Source: Alphaproteobacteria bacterium (GTDB taxonomy: Bacteria; Pseudomonadota; Alphaproteobacteria; Rs-D84). From it: a stretch of 52,741 nt of DNA. This document shows, piece after piece, positions 1-52,741 of the stretch (its first letter is position 1; each line of letters opens with the position of its first letter). The notes below the pieces were generated by a model, which was given only the letters and a program-made list of their open reading frames with translations, was not told the origin of the DNA and searched no databases. Location: contig JAFSDI010000010.1 in assembly GCA_017436325.1 (NCBI GenBank), positions 1 to 52,741 of the forward strand, written 5' to 3'. The position numbers and the translations under genes were made by a program.

Positions 1-93
1 AAATCCGCTTGATACGATTGATGCGTTTGCAGTGCCTGTGCCAACAATTCCCAATATCGTGCCGAATATGCCGGCGGTTAAGAGTCTTTTCAT
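1..93 (-). CDS. 5' fragment of secreted 'KIGTLP' family protein (copy A; runs off window start)
   Basis: Manual translation MKRLLTAGIFGTILGIVGTGTANASIVSSGF; signal-peptide-like; SIVSxGF matches the other three family members; AAAGGGG RBS-like site upstream. Confidence 0.8.
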   Translation of the reverse strand, partial: MKRLLTAGIFGTILGIVGTGTANASIVSSGF

Positions 94-126: not shown

Positions 127-383
127 AAAAAACCGCAATGAAAATCCAATGCGGTCGGGGAGTTCGTAAATCATAAACCTAATGACTCTGTCCGCCTTTG
201 GTGAAATTCACCTATTGTATAGCGGACAGCCCCCCGACATTTTCAGCCAGGGTTAACTAAGATTACGATGCAAATATGGAAATTATAAAATGGATTACGA
301 TACATATAATTATATGTTCGAATATATTTGCACCGAGGTTTATAGGCCTACGACAGCCCCGAACCGGATTCCCACCCAGTTCA
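127..383 (-). ncRNA. Conserved structured leader RNA, copy A, ending in an intrinsic terminator
   Basis: Shares GAACYRGRTGGGAATCYGGYTCGGGGCTGT, GTCGGGGRGC, TATACAAYAGG and AACTCCCCGACCGC-hairpin-T-tract with copies at 31609-31849 and 49831-50070; covarying helices. Confidence 0.75.
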
Positions 384-389
384 TATGCC

Positions 390-465: not shown

Positions 466-1533
466 TTAAAATATGTATTTTATATTCAAGTCGCCAATCC
501 AACCAGTTAAATCACCATCGTGACGGCCAATAGTTGCCTTGAATGCAAAGGAATTTGTTTGTTTTTCAAGACTAATTCCATATTCTGTATAATTGTCAAC
601 AGTGGGTATTTCAATTTCTGCGTCGTTAATGGTTATGTTTTTGTCTGTGTTTGATAACATTATGTACTTTACACCCAATGTGCCATACCAATTGTTGCCA
701 ATGTGCTTGACCGCATTTAGGGCAGGGGTGACTTCAAAAAATCCAAAGGTTTGATTTTGCAGGTCGTCACTGTATGTACTGTTTTGAGTTTCGTTCTTTA
801 TCCATGTGTAACCTGCAGTTATCACGGGATAAAGGCTGAATGTATCATCAAGCTTTAGGTTGTATGCAATGTTTGCCATTGCGCCAAACCAAATGTTTGT
901 ATGATTGTCAGAAATAGATGCATAGTTAACATCTGTTTTTAAAAATCCGGTGTTGATTGTGCTGTTGATTATAAAATTGTGCGTTTGTAATTTGTTAAGT
1001 ATACCAATAAATCCGCCATTTTCATCGCTGTCTAATTCTGAATTCTTGGATGTGCCGTTGATATAGCCACCATAAAATGTCCAATTGTAAAAGCCATTGG
1101 GTGTTGTTTTGTCGTGGGCAGTAAAGCCAATGGTTGCAATGTCATGTCTGGAATCAAATCGATTAAAATTATTTAGGTTTATATCATCTGATGTGTGCTG
1201 CCAATTAAGCCATATATTAGATATTGGCGCGTTTGTGTCGCCGCCGTTGCGCCCCATTGTTCCATCATCGTTGTATTCACCATATAATAATTCAGAACCA
1301 TAAATAGGCTGATTATATGTCGGGGCCGGATTGATTATGGTTTCTGGTGTGGTGATTGGATGTGCAGAAAAAGGCCTTGCACGCGTAGAAAATAGATTTT
1401 GTGTGATTGTGTGTTGTAATGTCGCAATTGTTGTGGCACCGATTGCTTGTTCGGTTGCGAATAGTGTTTGGTCGGCATATGCGTTGGTCGCAGAAAGTGC
1501 AATTAGTGCGCTGAAAAATAAAAAGTGTTTCAT
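466..1533 (-). CDS. Outer-membrane beta-barrel / autotransporter-beta-domain-like protein
   Basis: Signal peptide (AYA), alternating aromatic beta-strand pattern, C-terminal KYIF. Confidence 0.6.
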   Translation of the reverse strand: MKHFLFFSALIALSATNAYADQTLFATEQAIGATTIATLQHTITQNLFSTRARPFSAHPITTPETIINPAPTYNQPIYGSELLYGEYNDDGTMGRNGGDTNAPISNIWLNWQHTSDDINLNNFNRFDSRHDIATIGFTAHDKTTPNGFYNWTFYGGYINGTSKNSELDSDENGGFIGILNKLQTHNFIINSTINTGFLKTDVNYASISDNHTNIWFGAMANIAYNLKLDDTFSLYPVITAGYTWIKNETQNSTYSDDLQNQTFGFFEVTPALNAVKHIGNNWYGTLGVKYIMLSNTDKNITINDAEIEIPTVDNYTEYGISLEKQTNSFAFKATIGRHDGDLTGWIGDLNIKYIF

Positions 1534-30815: not shown

Positions 30816-31586
30816 TTATTCTGTTTGTGTTTCAGTTGTTGTTCGGTCAATTATTTCCCAACGATATGTTGCTGTTTCACCTAATTTTTCCGCAGTTAAG
30901 ACATATTTACCGTTGCTGGATTCATTAAGTACATTTGGAATGGCTTGTTCGGCAAGTTGTTTTGCTGTGTCTGCTGTAATCTTTACTGCCGCCAAGGCAT
31001 CAGCCAAATTTGTATAACCGTCTGGGATTGTGCCGATTTTATCAATGCCGGCGCTTAATTGTGGTAATGTGTATATTTTTTCCCCTATACCCGTTGTTGC
31101 CCCGTGCGTAATTAGTAATTCATATAAGCTTGTTTCAGGGAATTCGTTAATAAAATCAGAAAAATAATTTGATATATCATAAAGACCCAAATTATCGTTC
31201 CAGCCAGCGAATAATCGTAATGTTATTCCTGCAACGCCTGGGAATTCAGTGTTAAAATAACTGTTGTATAAAAAATCATATATGTTGTTTATATCATTTG
31301 ACTGACCAGAAAAGAAGGGTGTACTAAGCCAGTCGTTTTCAAGTCTTCCAAATAAACGGTGTATTGTTCCCCTGCCCGCAACTTCGGCATATGTTGCGGT
31401 GGAATCAGGTGTGCCGATTTTGTTTGATAGTGTTGTTATGTCGCTTTGATTTGCTTTGGAATCTAATAAGTTTAATGTAGCGTAATTTGTCATCTGTTCA
31501 TCAAAAAATCCGCGGGATATAATTGATGCAGAGGCGACACTTGTGATTGTTAGCCAAATGATTGTACTGATTAAAATTTTGTTCAT
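30816..31586 (-). CDS. Secreted 'KIGTLP' family fibre-like protein (copy B)
   Basis: Signal peptide, SIISRGFFDE, KIGTIPDGY, GKYVLTA..ATYRWEIIDR. Confidence 0.8.
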   Translation of the reverse strand: MNKILISTIIWLTITSVASASIISRGFFDEQMTNYATLNLLDSKANQSDITTLSNKIGTPDSTATYAEVAGRGTIHRLFGRLENDWLSTPFFSGQSNDINNIYDFLYNSYFNTEFPGVAGITLRLFAGWNDNLGLYDISNYFSDFINEFPETSLYELLITHGATTGIGEKIYTLPQLSAGIDKIGTIPDGYTNLADALAAVKITADTAKQLAEQAIPNVLNESSNGKYVLTAEKLGETATYRWEIIDRTTTETQTE

Positions 31587-31608: not shown

Positions 31609-31849
31609 AAAAAAACCGCAATGAGAATTCATGCGGTCGGGGAGTTCACAAATCACCTAAAAGTCTGATTCCGCCAGCCTTCGGGAAACCCTGTTGTATA
31701 AACTGACGGCTCCCCGACCGGTGTGGCTAAGCGGGGAAAACAATAAAAGACGCTTTCGCGCCCCTTTGTCGCGGATTCAGTATCGTTTTGCGATACCGCT
31801 TTTAGGCAAGGCTTGTGACAGCCCCGAACCAGATTCCCATCCAGTTCAA
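31609..31849 (-). ncRNA. Conserved structured leader RNA, copy B
   Basis: Same conserved blocks and compensatory helices as copies A and C; ends CCGCATGA..TCATTGCGG-T7. Confidence 0.75.
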
Positions 31850-31854
31850 TCGGA

Positions 31855-49796: not shown

Positions 49797-49825
49797 TTGA
49801 AAATAATCTTGGTATTAGGTATAAT
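49797..49825 (+). promoter_or_regulatory. sigma70-type promoter of leader RNA C
   Basis: TTGAAA-17bp-TATAAT. Confidence 0.7.
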
Positions 49826-49830
49826 TAATG

Positions 49831-50070
49831 TTGAACCAGATGGGAATCTGGCTCGGGGCTGTGGTGGCCCAGTACATCCGGTGCAAGTATATGTTATGTG
49901 TCGTAATCCGACGATTATTTCCTGTATTTGCACTGTATTTTTGTTAATCCCTGACTTGAAAGTCGGGGGGCTGACCGTTATACAACAGGTGTTTTCACCA
50001 AAGGCGGCAGAATCAACGATGTACTGATTACCAACTCCCCGACCGCTTATGATTTCCATAGCGGTTTTTT
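49831..50070 (+). ncRNA. Conserved structured leader RNA, copy C
   Basis: GAACCAGAT-GGGA-ATCTGGCTC hairpin; conserved blocks; terminator CCGCTTATG..CATAGCGG-T6. Confidence 0.75.
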
Positions 50071-50094
50071 AACACTAAAAAAAGAGGGATTTTT

Positions 50095-50754
50095 ATGAAT
50101 AAATATTTACTTGGGGTTCTTATGGGGTTGGGCACAATCGGCACAACATACGCATCAATTGTTTCGCGTGGTTTCTTGGACGAGGCCCTAACCAGTTACG
50201 CCACCACCACAGCACTGGATTTAAAAGCAGATAAGGCAGATTTGATGACGGTATCAGACACAATAGAAGAATGGAACAAAATTGCTAATATAGGTGAAGG
50301 ACTCGATTTTTGTAGCGGCATGAACTTGGATGCTATAGTAGTTAATGGCGAGACGATTTTCGGTAGCTGTTACGATACATATGATGTTAGCGATTTAATT
50401 AAGCGTTTTGTTCCATATCAGGCTCAATATGAGGGAAATTGGTTTATTCAATTATTAGAATTATCGACAAAGGGTTATACAAAAGGAATCGATCAAATAA
50501 AAGGTTTGGAAACTTTAACATCAGACATTGAAGATTTGAACATCAAAATCGGAACTTTGCCGGCTGGTTATGAAACTGTTGGTGATGCGCTGACCGCCAT
50601 TAATGCCAAGGTTGATAACAAGATTGAAAATCTGTCTGAAACCGCCAGTGCTGGAAAATATGTCTTAACCGCGGTTAAGGTTGGTGACCAGACAACCTAT
50701 GCCTGGGAATTGATTGACCGCAGTGAAAGCGAAACCACAACAACAAGCGAATAG
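50095..50754 (+). CDS. Secreted 'KIGTLP' family fibre-like protein (copy C)
   Basis: Signal peptide, SIVSRGFLDE, KIGTLPAGY, GKYVLTA..TTYAWELIDR. Confidence 0.8.
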   Translation: MNKYLLGVLMGLGTIGTTYASIVSRGFLDEALTSYATTTALDLKADKADLMTVSDTIEEWNKIANIGEGLDFCSGMNLDAIVVNGETIFGSCYDTYDVSDLIKRFVPYQAQYEGNWFIQLLELSTKGYTKGIDQIKGLETLTSDIEDLNIKIGTLPAGYETVGDALTAINAKVDNKIENLSETASAGKYVLTAVKVGDQTTYAWELIDRSESETTTTSE

Positions 50755-50840: not shown

Positions 50841-50911
50841 ACATCTTTATTATCGGTATGCTTGATAGGTACGGGTATGATAACGAGCTGATAAATTATG
50901 ATTTTGTAGCG

Positions 50912-51165
50912 TTTGAATTGGGGTAGAAAAAAGGATAACACCTGGGTCCTGTGGGGCATTCACCCACAAAATTTTTTCCAAAAATTTTGCGGGGCCCGAA
51001 AAAGCCACAGGATGACAAAGGTTAAAAATTTATTATAAAATTTTGCGGGACACGGAAAAAACACAGCGATGACAAGAGATTAAAATTTGTGATTTTGTGG
51101 GATTTGAACTGAGGTAGGAAAAAGGATAACACCTGGGTCCTGTGGTCAAGCCACAGGATGACAAC
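50912..51165. repeat. Cluster of REP/RPE-like palindromic elements
   Basis: TGGGTCCTGTGG-TCAAG-CCACAGGATGACA at ~51134-51163; second copy at ~50943-51017 with a hairpin insert; shared ~43-bp 5' segment. Confidence 0.7.
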
Positions 51166-51264
51166 ACTTCGTTAAAACTTCGTGTTGCAGGCAAGTTTTG
51201 TTAAAAGTTCGGGGTGTGTGGGGGGGATGATTAATCCCCTGTTTGCACAGGGGATTTGGGTGGG

Positions 51265-52740
51265 TTATTCGGTAGTGGTAGTGGTGGTTTCACCCTCGCG
51301 ATCTATCTTTTCCCAGTGATATGTCGCATTATCACCAACAATATCAACAGTTAAGACAAATTTACCGCTTGAACCCTCTTGCTTAGGGTCTGGGATTGCC
51401 GCCAGTGCTGCAGCCTTAGCATCTTCGGCAATGCCCTTAATTGCGGTCAGCGCCGCCCCAACACTATCATAGCCCGCCGGCAATGTACCGATTTGCCTCT
51501 CTATAGCTCCCGTACGGTCAAATAAGCCTGTATGATTATCATTTCCATAAATCTCATCCTCAAGTCCCCAAAGAAGATCTATAGTATCACCAAATAAAAT
51601 AGCTAGGATTCCGGGGTGTTTTGCAGATGTATCGCCATATAAATCAATAATAAGTTCTTCAAGGGATTGTGGATATGTTGCATCAACTGGGAATATCGTA
51701 TGACGAGAATTAAAATCCTCTAATATACTTGATAACATAGGTGCTACCCCACTTGGCAATGTACCGATTTTGGCATCGGTTTCACTTATCATACCTGCAA
51801 GATTTTTGCCATCTGGTACAGTACCGATTTTGGTTTCGATAGAAGCGATTTTACTATCTAAATATAGGGTGCGTGTTGATATTTCAGGAAGCGATAAAAT
51901 TTTTACTCCAGCAAGATTCTCAGATCCGTGTAAAATTATATTTAATAATCCACCTATATTGTAATCTTTACCAAGAAGATCTGCAGCTGGATATTTTGCA
52001 TAATCTAGAGTTCCGTTAGCGGTATATTTGTAAGTTAGCATTGATGATGGCAATGTGCCGATTTTATCAATCCCTTCACTCAGTTTCCACAGTGGATATA
52101 TAGGGCCTGTATAGTCAACACCATCGATTGTTGTGGCTCTTGCGCCCTGAATTAATAAAGGTGCTGTTTGAGATTCATAGGCATTCAGTAAAAGTCTTTC
52201 GTTCTTGCTAAAAGCGTATACTCCGGGAAAACCATCCCCTCCTTTATCAGTCCAGCCTTCATACATAGCCTTTAATCCTGGGTTAGCAAGCGCCCCATTC
52301 TCATCCGTCCAGCCTTGGTACATACCTTGAACCGTTATGCCTTCTGGCAATGTGCCGATTTTGGTATTTAAATCTTTTATGCCAAGATAGGTTTGGCCAC
52401 TGACTGAATCAGTCCAACCACCAGTTAGCGATAGCATTGAATGAAGAATGAAGCCTTCTACTAAATCAAAAGCCCCGTTAATGTTATTATTAACTTTATT
52501 TGGATTAAAACCATATGCAAGGTCTCCGATTTCAGCACCCCATAACATTTTTAAATTATCTACAGAATCACTTATTTGTGTATTTAATTCTATAAAATCG
52601 CTTTGATTCGCTTTCAGGTCTAGTGATGTGCTGAGTGCGTATTCTGTTAATTTTTCGTCTAAAAATCCGCTTGATACGATTGATGCGTTTGCAGTGCCTG
52701 TGCTAACAATTCCTAATATCGTGCCGAATATGCCGGCGGT
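51265..52740 (-). CDS. Secreted 'KIGTLP' family fibre-like protein (copy D, 5'-truncated by window end)
   Basis: Frame open from 52740 (TAGIFGTILGIVSTGTANASIVSSGFLDE...); five IGT(L/V)P repeats; GKFVLT..ATYHWEKIDR C-terminus. Confidence 0.85.
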   Translation of the reverse strand, partial: TAGIFGTILGIVSTGTANASIVSSGFLDEKLTEYALSTSLDLKANQSDFIELNTQISDSVDNLKMLWGAEIGDLAYGFNPNKVNNNINGAFDLVEGFILHSMLSLTGGWTDSVSGQTYLGIKDLNTKIGTLPEGITVQGMYQGWTDENGALANPGLKAMYEGWTDKGGDGFPGVYAFSKNERLLLNAYESQTAPLLIQGARATTIDGVDYTGPIYPLWKLSEGIDKIGTLPSSMLTYKYTANGTLDYAKYPAADLLGKDYNIGGLLNIILHGSENLAGVKILSLPEISTRTLYLDSKIASIETKIGTVPDGKNLAGMISETDAKIGTLPSGVAPMLSSILEDFNSRHTIFPVDATYPQSLEELIIDLYGDTSAKHPGILAILFGDTIDLLWGLEDEIYGNDNHTGLFDRTGAIERQIGTLPAGYDSVGAALTAIKGIAEDAKAAALAAIPDPKQEGSSGKFVLTVDIVGDNATYHWEKIDREGETTTTTTE

Positions 52741-52741
52741 T

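Follow-up and report, generated by a model that had tools for sequence, protein, structure and literature searches.

Locus and family members

The stretch of DNA analysed here, referred to as the window, is the whole of contig JAFSDI010000010.1 (contig C6, 52,741 bp) of the alphaproteobacterial genome GCA_017436325.1, which comprises 1,037,644 bp in 42 contigs and is 95.8% complete. Gene D, at the end of this contig, encodes a modular protein with a signal-peptide-like N-terminus, and three of its paralogs (genes B and C and fragment A) lie in the same window. All four were located where the initial annotation, made from the sequence alone, had placed them (Table 1). A phmmer search with B, C and D against all stop-to-stop open reading frames (ORFs) of the genome recovered 33 family ORFs or fragments, 9 of which are cut by contig ends. 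Both end motifs described below are present in 21 complete genes of more than 150 aa, and lengths range from ~106 to 618 aa. The family occupies ~3% of the 1 Mb genome, to which the leaders add ~12 kb. Its genes are dispersed among housekeeping operons, outside prophages; for instance, gene B stands between rplM-rpsI and a histidine kinase gene, and gene C follows trmD-rplS.

Table 1. Members of the protein family, parts of gene D and associated elements in the window.
Feature	Position	Strand	Description
Fragment A	1..93	-	31 codons with the start codon and signal peptide of a further paralog; truncated at the start of the contig
Leader RNA of A	127..387	-	Conserved leader
Gene B	30816..31586	-	256-aa paralog
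Leader RNA of B	31609..31852	-	Conserved leader
Candidate promoter of C	49798-49825	+	TTGAAA-16/17 nt-TATAAT
Leader RNA of C	49826..50072	+	Terminator at ~50043-50071
Gene C	50095..50754	+	219-aa paralog, convergent with D
Multicopy palindromic repeat cluster	50870..51230		3' flank of D, between convergent C and D; 67 blastn matches in the genome
Gene D	51265..52740	-	491 codons and stop; 5' end open at the contig end
C-terminal block of D	51268..51477	-	AGYDSVGAALTAIKGIAEDAKAAALAAIPDPKQEGSSGKFVLTVDIVGDNATYHWEKIDREGE, then Thr-rich tail
Linker 5 (Q-IGTLP)	51478..51495	-	D residues 416-421 of 491; C-terminal block begins
Linker 4 (K-IGTLP)	51754..51771	-	D residues 324-329
Linker 3 (K-IGTVP)	51814..51831	-	D residues 304-309; start of blocks common to contigs C23, C24, C26 and C33
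Linker 2 (K-IGTLP)	52048..52065	-	D residues 226-231; end of the IYPLWKLSEGIDKIGTLP module
Linker 1 (K-IGTLP)	52345..52362	-	D residues 127-132
N-terminal block of D	52570..52740	-	Remainder of the signal peptide (..GTANA, followed by S), then SIVSSGFLDEKLTEYALSTSLDLKANQSDF; N-type 6

The missing start of gene D can be recovered from elsewhere. A public protein of 496 aa from another assembly (P0038) corresponds to full-length D; the one residue seen to differ lies in the signal peptide. Contig C13 includes a leader and a start codon, and its start matches the first 136 nt of D at 100%; two further contig ends match the 5' end of D at 97.5–99.3%. Because three contig ends match the start of D, the truncation is attributed to a break in the assembly. 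Fragment A was considered as the missing start on a circular contig and rejected, as it overlaps D by 79 nt with 2 mismatches, against the 136 nt at 100% of contig C13. At the other end of the gene, palindromic units of the repeat cluster (e.g. ..CCTGTGG....CCACAGG..) recur at many contig ends and behind other D-type paralogs, and the cluster shows high summed depth in other sequencing runs. These units are probably a main cause of assembly breaks.

Shared ends and predicted export

The shared end motifs were found as the initial annotation had described them, with SI(I/V)S(R/S)GF.DE..YA..LD.KA at the N-terminal end and GK(Y/F)VLT..G..TY.WE.ID followed by a Thr/Glu tail at the C-terminal end. 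The accompanying claim that these ends are constant did not hold. Several end types exist and reassort: N-type 2 pairs with C-types 1 and 2, C-type 2 pairs with four N-types, and signal-peptide types recombine with N-types. In addition, identities of the N-terminal and C-terminal ends are only loosely correlated (Spearman 0.33 over 210 pairs). In gene D, the N-terminal block shares 91–100% nucleotide identity with 7 paralogs or fragments, and the C-terminal block shares 90–96% with paralogs on contigs C17, C23, C26, C33 and C38. The Thr-rich tail of D is encoded by a GGTAGT microsatellite (51271-51285), of which in-frame length variants of 3 and 6 nt occur in contigs of other runs.

At the start of every complete member, a pair of basic residues is followed by ~15 hydrophobic residues and A-x-A, with no cysteine after it. 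Judged by eye, this arrangement resembles a Sec/signal-peptidase-I type signal, and the proteins are predicted to be exported by that route. In keeping with the initial annotation, no characterised family claims the proteins. A Pfam-A hmmscan of B, C and D gave no family at E ≤ 1 (including Surface_Ag_2 PF01617, YadA_anchor and Flagellin_N/Flagellin_C), PHROGs returned a spanin at E=0.018 as its sole match, and NCBIfam and PDB sequence searches of the same three proteins returned nothing usable. Furthermore, literature searches, including full text for 'IGTLP', yielded no printed description of the family.

Linker motif and its constraint at the DNA level

Between the two ends, the proteins are punctuated by IGT(L/I/V)P-type motifs. 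The counts of the initial annotation were right for D (five) and C (one), while the two claimed for B proved to be one strict copy (KIGTIP) and one partial 'KIGTPD'. The motif is specific to the family: the 8,212 aa of the family contain IGT[LIVM]P 32 times, and the 430,594 aa of the other ORFs of the genome (six-frame, at least 100 aa) do not contain it at all. As had been proposed, the junction is also conserved as DNA. The word GGCAATGTRCCGATTT occurs four times in D, at 51479, 51755, 52049 and 52346, whereas none of 100 shuffled sequences contained any match; a fifth copy, at 51814, has diverged. All five copies of the motif in D are arranged as direct repeats, and the length of the linker repeat is 18–33 nt.

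Codon usage within the motif is restricted at two of its positions. Isoleucine is encoded by ATC in 25 of the 27 KIGT[LIVM]P copies of the genome, although ATC is the rarest isoleucine codon of the family (18%). The lysine is AAA in all 27, and the third positions of the neighbouring glycine, threonine, leucine and proline codons vary freely. The DNA word AAAATCGG therefore seems to be constrained in itself, beyond the need of the protein. Common descent alone is insufficient as an explanation, as one synonymous site stayed fixed while its neighbours turned over. The constraint may reflect a recombination signal, a translational requirement or another cause.

Mosaic structure and breakpoints

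Gene D is a mosaic of segments with different closest relatives. At the nucleotide level, residues 1-133 share 89–92% identity with paralogs on contigs C23, C38 and C17, residues 156-228 share 87% with C33, residues 303-329 share 92–98% with C23, C24, C26 and C33, and residues 416-489 share 90–96% with five paralogs. Residues 210-232 are identical to the C38 paralog over 66 nt (100%), while residues 232-303 and 330-415 are nearly unique. The recurrence of sub-modules between copies, as noted in the initial annotation, is borne out by the IYPLWKLSEGIDKIGTLP module, which recurs with these 66 identical nucleotides, and by GWTD, which occurs three times in D (residues 108, 143 and 162).

The ends of such blocks concentrate at the linkers. 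Similarity blocks were defined by blastn (at least 75% identity and at least 40 nt) across all family genes, and only internal endpoints were counted. Altogether, 164 of 558 endpoints fall within the 18-nt motif, where random placement puts 6% (at most 8% over 500 randomisations). This amounts to a ~5-fold enrichment at the KIGTLP junctions and agrees with what had been predicted for them. When only unique endpoints are considered, 87 of 362 lie within the motif. For D alone the figures are 22 of 56 against 7% at random, and at linker 5 eleven DNA similarity blocks begin at nt 1246-1248 of the gene. At the protein level, 41 of 103 endpoints lie within 5 aa of a motif, compared with 16% for random placement.

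The order of modules in D is not peculiar to this assembly, as it is reproduced in P0038. Moreover, contigs of run X1, which may be the source sample, cover 51453-51787, 51804-52077 and 52114-52383 without difference and bridge all five motifs, and a contig of run X4, from another study, covers 51805-52077 without difference. Parts of D without cover in runs X4, X6 and X12 were not counted as absent. Contigs of other runs also join separate motif sites of D (51490->51788, 51494->51749, 51495->52336 and 51845->52059).

Assembly or binning errors could in principle produce mosaics of this kind, as chimeras formed by the assembler at short repeats, and the 9 of 33 family ORFs that run off contig ends, together with the three contig ends matching the start of D at 97.5–100%, would be consistent with such errors. 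This explanation is nevertheless highly improbable. The linker repeat is only 18–33 nt long, 21 complete frames are open, the order of D is repeated in P0038 and in contigs of other runs bridging each motif, and the same architecture appears in three other metagenome-assembled genomes (MAGs) and in genome G222.

The constraint on AAAATCGG at the codon level, the sharp block boundaries inside the motif and the contigs joining motif sites of D (e.g. 51494->51749, 51495->52336 and 51845->52059) would also fit a programmed shuffling of cassettes, in which this word is the site of a dedicated recombinase and rearrangement occurs at high frequency, as in a shufflon or the Mycoplasma vsa/vsp genes. 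Programmed shuffling is regarded as improbable on several grounds. The repeats in D are direct rather than inverted, so that site-specific exchange would delete modules instead of switching them, and the paralogs explain the observed joints equally well. In addition, the blocks shared between paralogs are 77–98% identical rather than identical, which points to old exchanges, and no recombinase was seen beside the family genes, though none was searched for. A diversity-generating retroelement (DGR) was rejected as the source of variation. The only reverse transcriptase (RT) of the genome, a 548-aa open frame (stop to stop) at C7:11094-12740, adjoins Mrr-like and methyltransferase-like ORFs, and no repeat is shared between its surroundings and the family genes: a blastn search of C7:9000-15000 against the genome found repeats only on contig C37 and at C23:2701-2929, none of them within a family gene. 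The enzyme probably represents an RT of a defence island.

The process favoured here is homologous recombination or gene conversion between paralogs, with the DNA-conserved linker (AAAATCGGNAC...) as the commonest crossover point; such exchange may be ongoing. Strand composition adds little to this picture. The initial annotation had noted that D appears to lack the plus-strand bias of other minus-strand genes and had taken this as a hint of recent relocation. Among the 19 minus-strand ORFs of the window, whose plus strand is G-rich, gene D indeed ranks lowest in plus-strand GC skew (-0.077, against a mean of +0.062 and a standard deviation of 0.087), but the deviation is only ~1.6 standard deviations. 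Nor is it specific to D: family genes at other sites in the genome that oppose the G-rich strand have a mean coding skew of +0.05 (standard deviation 0.07, n=7), compared with +0.077 for D. The skew is accordingly a property of the family, due either to the composition of its genes or to exchange among copies that lie on both strands, and the relocation is not upheld.

A conserved leader RNA with copy-specific helices

The conserved leader RNA that the initial annotation had linked to these genes was confirmed by nhmmer, with 30 of the 49 copies in the genome preceding family genes. Every family gene with available upstream sequence has a ~245-nt leader after a TATAAT box, ending in a hairpin and U-run 20–50 nt before the start codon, and 30 family genes each possess a leader, a ribosome-binding site and an ATG. 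Each copy would form an independent transcription unit made of a promoter, a leader and an intrinsic terminator just before the ribosome-binding site. Because of the position of this terminator, expression is predicted to need regulated read-through.

The consensus fold of the leader comprises 62 base pairs in 9 helices, with 95% of cells paired and compensatory changes at 30 pairs. None of 500 shuffled alignments reached any of these measures, and slid controls gave at most 16 compensatory pairs. A long-range helix (alignment columns 30-56 with 249-275) closes the structure beside the terminator (277-300). At gathering level, Rfam detected only RNase P and 5 tRNAs in the window. Below that level, the leaders of B and C score 30.9 and 22.3 bits against sRNA-Xcc1 (RF02221), whose gathering threshold is 53 bits, and the 3' half of the leader aligns to the whole of this model, including the closing helix GUCGGGG/CCCCGAC, the AUACAA loop and two hairpins.

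One helix of the structure differs in every copy of the leader. Its 3' strand falls within hairpin 2 of the Xcc1-like domain, in the loop and the 3' arm, which is where c4-type antisense RNAs carry recognition loops. Across 21 leaders, the ten variable paired columns (helices 3 and 4) pair with their own partners at 9.5 of 10 positions on average, and 16 leaders do so perfectly. When the two strands are taken from different leaders, none of 420 combinations is perfect, the mean falls to 5.2, and 11 combinations reach 9. Each leader would accordingly carry a private address, which suggests regulation copy by copy. Antitermination by a NusG paralog (RfaH/UpxY-like) was considered and is unsupported, as the genome has one NusG gene only.

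The 19 remaining leaders mostly precede genes for small or exported proteins. These include three proteins of a ~295-aa Cys-rich family, four miniature proteins of 75–81 aa, a secreted coiled-coil protein of more than 992 aa and a lipoprotein, while some leaders lie at contig ends. The Cys-rich proteins form a second leader-preceded family (C12:9520-, C37:33137- and C38:-28918), exported, 292–299 aa long and near-identical in their C-terminal halves. The miniature proteins carry the motif ASIPSSAFMREQ...GTYTV(T/S)G and look like minimal relatives of the main family. Within the window, the leader of fragment A adjoins a 355-aa ORF (466-1533, minus strand) whose product has a signal peptide and ends in ...KYIF, as outer-membrane beta-barrels typically do.

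Distribution of the family and of the leader

Close homologs of the family are confined to a small number of sister genomes of ruminant-gut origin, and single, distant coiled-coil relatives exist in other genomes of the genus. A word-indexed search of 5.8 billion proteins returned 19 homologs of B, none of them named, and a profile search of 1.84 billion cluster representatives gave 143 matches at E ≤ 0.001 and 59 at E ≤ 1e-30. Among GTDB species genomes, 15 loci were confirmed in three MAGs, whose record titles refer to sheep rectum (8 loci), goat colon (4) and a further assembly (3). In a sample of 200 genomes of the family-level group, 23 of the 158 same-genus genomes match at E ≤ 1e-5, and none of the 42 genomes from 17 other genera does. 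An expansion was found in a single same-genus genome (G222), and the other 22 matching genomes contain one weak match each.

The weak-match relatives (P0126, P0127, P0129 and a gene of genome G003 at 790-1674 of locus L032) have a signal peptide, an A(I/V)TSK.YVD N-terminal end and an NGKYVLTA..TYAWE.IER C-terminal end, with long coiled-coil or fibre-like repeats in the middle. Because these distant single-copy relatives keep both ends around coiled-coil middles, the ends are deduced to be older than the expansion, and the coiled-coil middle to have been replaced by new modules in a small clade.

The leader has a wider distribution than the expanded family. It lies upstream in 11 of the 15 related loci of the three other MAGs, and none was found at the sixteenth locus searched (L032 of G003); as leaders were sought by nhmmer and BLAST, distant ones may have been missed. 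By BLAST, 86 of 160 other genomes of the genus contain it, and the five loci inspected in them all have it in front of genes for unrelated proteins that carry a signal peptide. Its presence before other exported genes in many genomes of the genus indicates a genus-wide leader of exported-protein genes that is older than the family expansion. In G003 and G102, a small exported-protein gene lies directly 3' of rplS and gene C is absent from this position; in G222, a leader and a 219-aa ortholog of gene C stand between rplS and the next gene, as in the window. Comparison of these rplS neighbours indicates that leader and gene were inserted as one unit.

PMC12306168 describes the order Rs-D84 (genus Enterousia) from farm-animal guts, with genomes of ~0.75–1.0 Mb, no flagella and few transporters, and proposes that these reduced-genome bacteria depend on partner cells. 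The relatives of the present genome come from ruminant guts, and the genome is consistent with this description; it is likely to be a member of the same group. The protein family is unmentioned in the available text of PMC12306168.

Protein models and a possible fibre ancestry

Structure prediction offers a limited view of the modules. The AlphaFold monomer of B, built from 16 sequences, has a mean predicted local distance difference test (pLDDT) of 45.1, and that of D, built from 46 sequences, has a mean pLDDT of 56.4 and a predicted template modelling score (pTM) of 0.23. In the model of D, blocks with pLDDT 70-82 (residues ~100-125, 150-185, 340-380 and 430-480) alternate with low-confidence stretches (129-142, 228-260, 284-327 and 385-418) that contain or adjoin the linkers, and a terminal helix is followed by a beta-hairpin at 460-479. 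Such a model would fit modules arranged as beads on a string, though it proves little. Two familiar architectures were examined and failed. A YadA-like trimeric autotransporter is contradicted by the lack of a Pfam match in B, C and D and by a C-terminal end modelled as a helix with one beta-hairpin. A flagellin-type subunit is likewise opposed by the lack of a Pfam match and, as flagellins have no signal peptide, by the signal-peptide-like segment ending in A-x-A with which the complete members start.

A more specific proposal is that the proteins are trimeric fibres of phage-tail-fibre ancestry and that the family arose from coiled-coil fibre proteins. Herein, the C-terminal GK(Y/F)VLT...TY.WE.I beta-hairpin would act as a foldon-like trimerisation knot, the N-terminal end as an anchor and the variable middle as an exposed shaft or tip. 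The genus relatives P0126, P0127, P0129 and the L032 gene, which keep both ends around coiled-coil or fibre-like repeats, point in this direction, as does the terminal beta-hairpin of the AlphaFold models. Some of the proteins hit weakly by the profile contain Mtd_N, YadA_head and Alanine_zipper domains. Furthermore, neighbours in a protein atlas comprise phage fibre families and Fibritin_C, at scores of 0.79–0.81 that shuffled proteins often reach; all named neighbours score below 0.9 and serve as leads only.

The ORF upstream of the L032 relative in G003 (L032 188-751) carries LAGYGITDAYTKTETD, which we take to be typical of phage tail fibres, and it ends in a similar small beta-hairpin-like motif, GRCVLSVDTEGSGLMWLDV. 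These features hint at a number of fibre-like exported proteins in the genus, encoded by operons that lack the leader. Other results speak against a phage origin. PHROGs offered nothing beyond the spanin match at E=0.018, no Pfam fibre family was hit, a tblastn search of P0127 against 50,697 phage records gave no match, and of 42 pattern matches in an IMG/VR scan none was confirmed. The signal peptides are of the Sec type, the loci lie between housekeeping operons and not in prophages, and in the close members other modules stand in place of the coiled coil. A fibre ancestry is on balance a tentative proposal that may well not hold, and it would refine rather than exclude the reading set out below.

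Proposed role and its uncertainties

Taken as a whole, the evidence is best explained by an exported, probably surface-located, modular protein family that diversifies by recombination between paralogs and is gated by transcription attenuation, a reading held with moderate confidence. According to this proposal, A, B, C and D belong to a lineage-restricted multigene family of Sec-exported proteins, each of which would be a string of small, mostly helical modules on flexible K-IGT(L/V)P linkers. Exchange of modules between paralogs would yield a repertoire of proteins with related ends and different middles. The most likely role of this repertoire would be that of a variable coat or adhesin set, located at the cell surface or secreted, in a gut bacterium that has a reduced genome and would depend on partners. 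The sequences directly show the family, its signal-peptide-like N-termini, the mosaic pattern with breakpoints enriched at the motif, the leader fold with its terminator, and the distribution. The module shuffling proposed in the initial annotation is thereby borne out in essence, whereas the fibre- or adhesin-like character suggested there is putative, as both AlphaFold models are of low confidence and fold searches returned nothing.

Several points weigh against this interpretation. More than half (55%) of the endpoints at the DNA level are located over 15 nt away from the nearest motif. BLAST blocks also tend by themselves to stop at a conserved word whose flanks are unrelated, and paralog pairs are not independent of one another. 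The joints between motif sites in contigs of other runs have short sides of 20–45 nt, and alleles or paralogs account for them equally well. Recombination is deduced from patterns in present-day genes rather than observed, and expression, export beyond the inner membrane, surface location, binding and attenuation as the mode of control are likewise proposed. The proteins could be periplasmic, given that neither an outer-membrane anchor nor a lipobox nor a known sorting signal was recognised in them. Finally, both structure models are poor, and a Foldseek search of the model of D against PDB and BFVD found nothing at E ≤ 0.001.

That no surface-sorting signal was recognised would be accounted for if the proteins were periplasmic or structural components of the envelope, with a diversity due to neutral drift within a duplicated family and no role in variation or adhesion. 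The Ala-rich helices of the long member P0045, which resemble Lpp zippers (PF11839, 30.1 bits against a cut-off of 23.1), also suit a structural function. Neutral drift is, however, judged distinctly unlikely: ~30 intact copies have been retained in a reduced genome of 1.04 Mb, the expansion is confined to a few sister genomes (1 of 158 other genus genomes sampled), and mosaic exchange together with dedicated, regulated leaders argues for selection on diversity.

A more far-reaching version of the favoured surface-repertoire model can be drawn from the leader. Family and leader might constitute a self-addressed expression system for a shuffled surface repertoire, a speculative extension that is thought unlikely to hold in full. 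A private 10-bp complement between the upstream segment and the c4/Xcc1-like loop would allow each paralog to be switched in cis or by its own processed RNA, and AAAATCGG would act as a recombination signal generating new module orders. If true, this would represent a new type of combinatorial coat variation, in which genes are chosen by RNA address and cassettes are exchanged under the guidance of the linker; the bacterium itself probably lives attached to other cells.

These observations are of interest in several respects. Given the share of the genome devoted to them (~3%, plus ~12 kb of leaders), the family proteins are the best candidates for contact with a partner cell, the host or phages. 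Recombining variable surface families recur in small-genome microbes that depend on hosts or partners, and the present family would place such a system in a little-known, uncultured lineage of gut Alphaproteobacteria. In practical terms, the family offers a handle for the detection of strains and for the design of enrichment or localisation experiments, and a short linker that marks exchange points and is constrained at synonymous sites provides a natural case in which to study what guides module shuffling. The leader, multicopy and strongly covarying with copy-specific helices, is a candidate for a new class of regulatory RNA.

Comparison with known systems

The leader resembles sRNA-Xcc1 and the phage c4 antisense RNAs in its 3' half, yet it differs from them in context and design. 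Here, the Xcc1-like domain is embedded in a ~245-nt leader, precedes genes for exported proteins and occurs 49 times per genome, and the loop of hairpin 2 pairs with a copy-specific segment upstream.

With regard to the proteins, phage tail fibres, T4 fibritin and the mosaic fibres of Bdellovibrio are likewise modular, with conserved ends for attachment or folding and swapped modules in the middle or at the tip, and distant relatives of the present family have fibre-like coiled-coil middles. The family shows no detectable homology to them, has a Sec signal peptide and does not lie in prophages. The Vsp, Vsa and Vlp proteins of Mycoplasma are also encoded by multigene families in reduced genomes and combine a conserved 5' untranslated region and signal peptide with a variable, repetitive body. 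These are lipoproteins, whereas the signal peptides described here end in A-x-A without a lipobox cysteine; inverted recombination sites or an adjacent recombinase were not seen (no recombinase search was made), and the 5' region conserved here takes the form of a large folded RNA that includes a terminator.

A further parallel in organisation is found in Msp2/P44 of Anaplasma and OMP-1 of Ehrlichia, which have many paralogs with conserved ends, a hypervariable centre and recombination between copies, and which rely on a single expression site and silent, promoterless cassettes. The present family shares with them a small alphaproteobacterial genome, conserved N- and C-terminal parts around a variable centre and paralogs that probably recombine. 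It has no sequence relation to these proteins (PF01617) and, in the low-confidence models, is not a beta-barrel. In place of a single expression site, 30 copies have their own leader and start codon, and in place of one variable loop region, the centre is a chain of modules of variable number.

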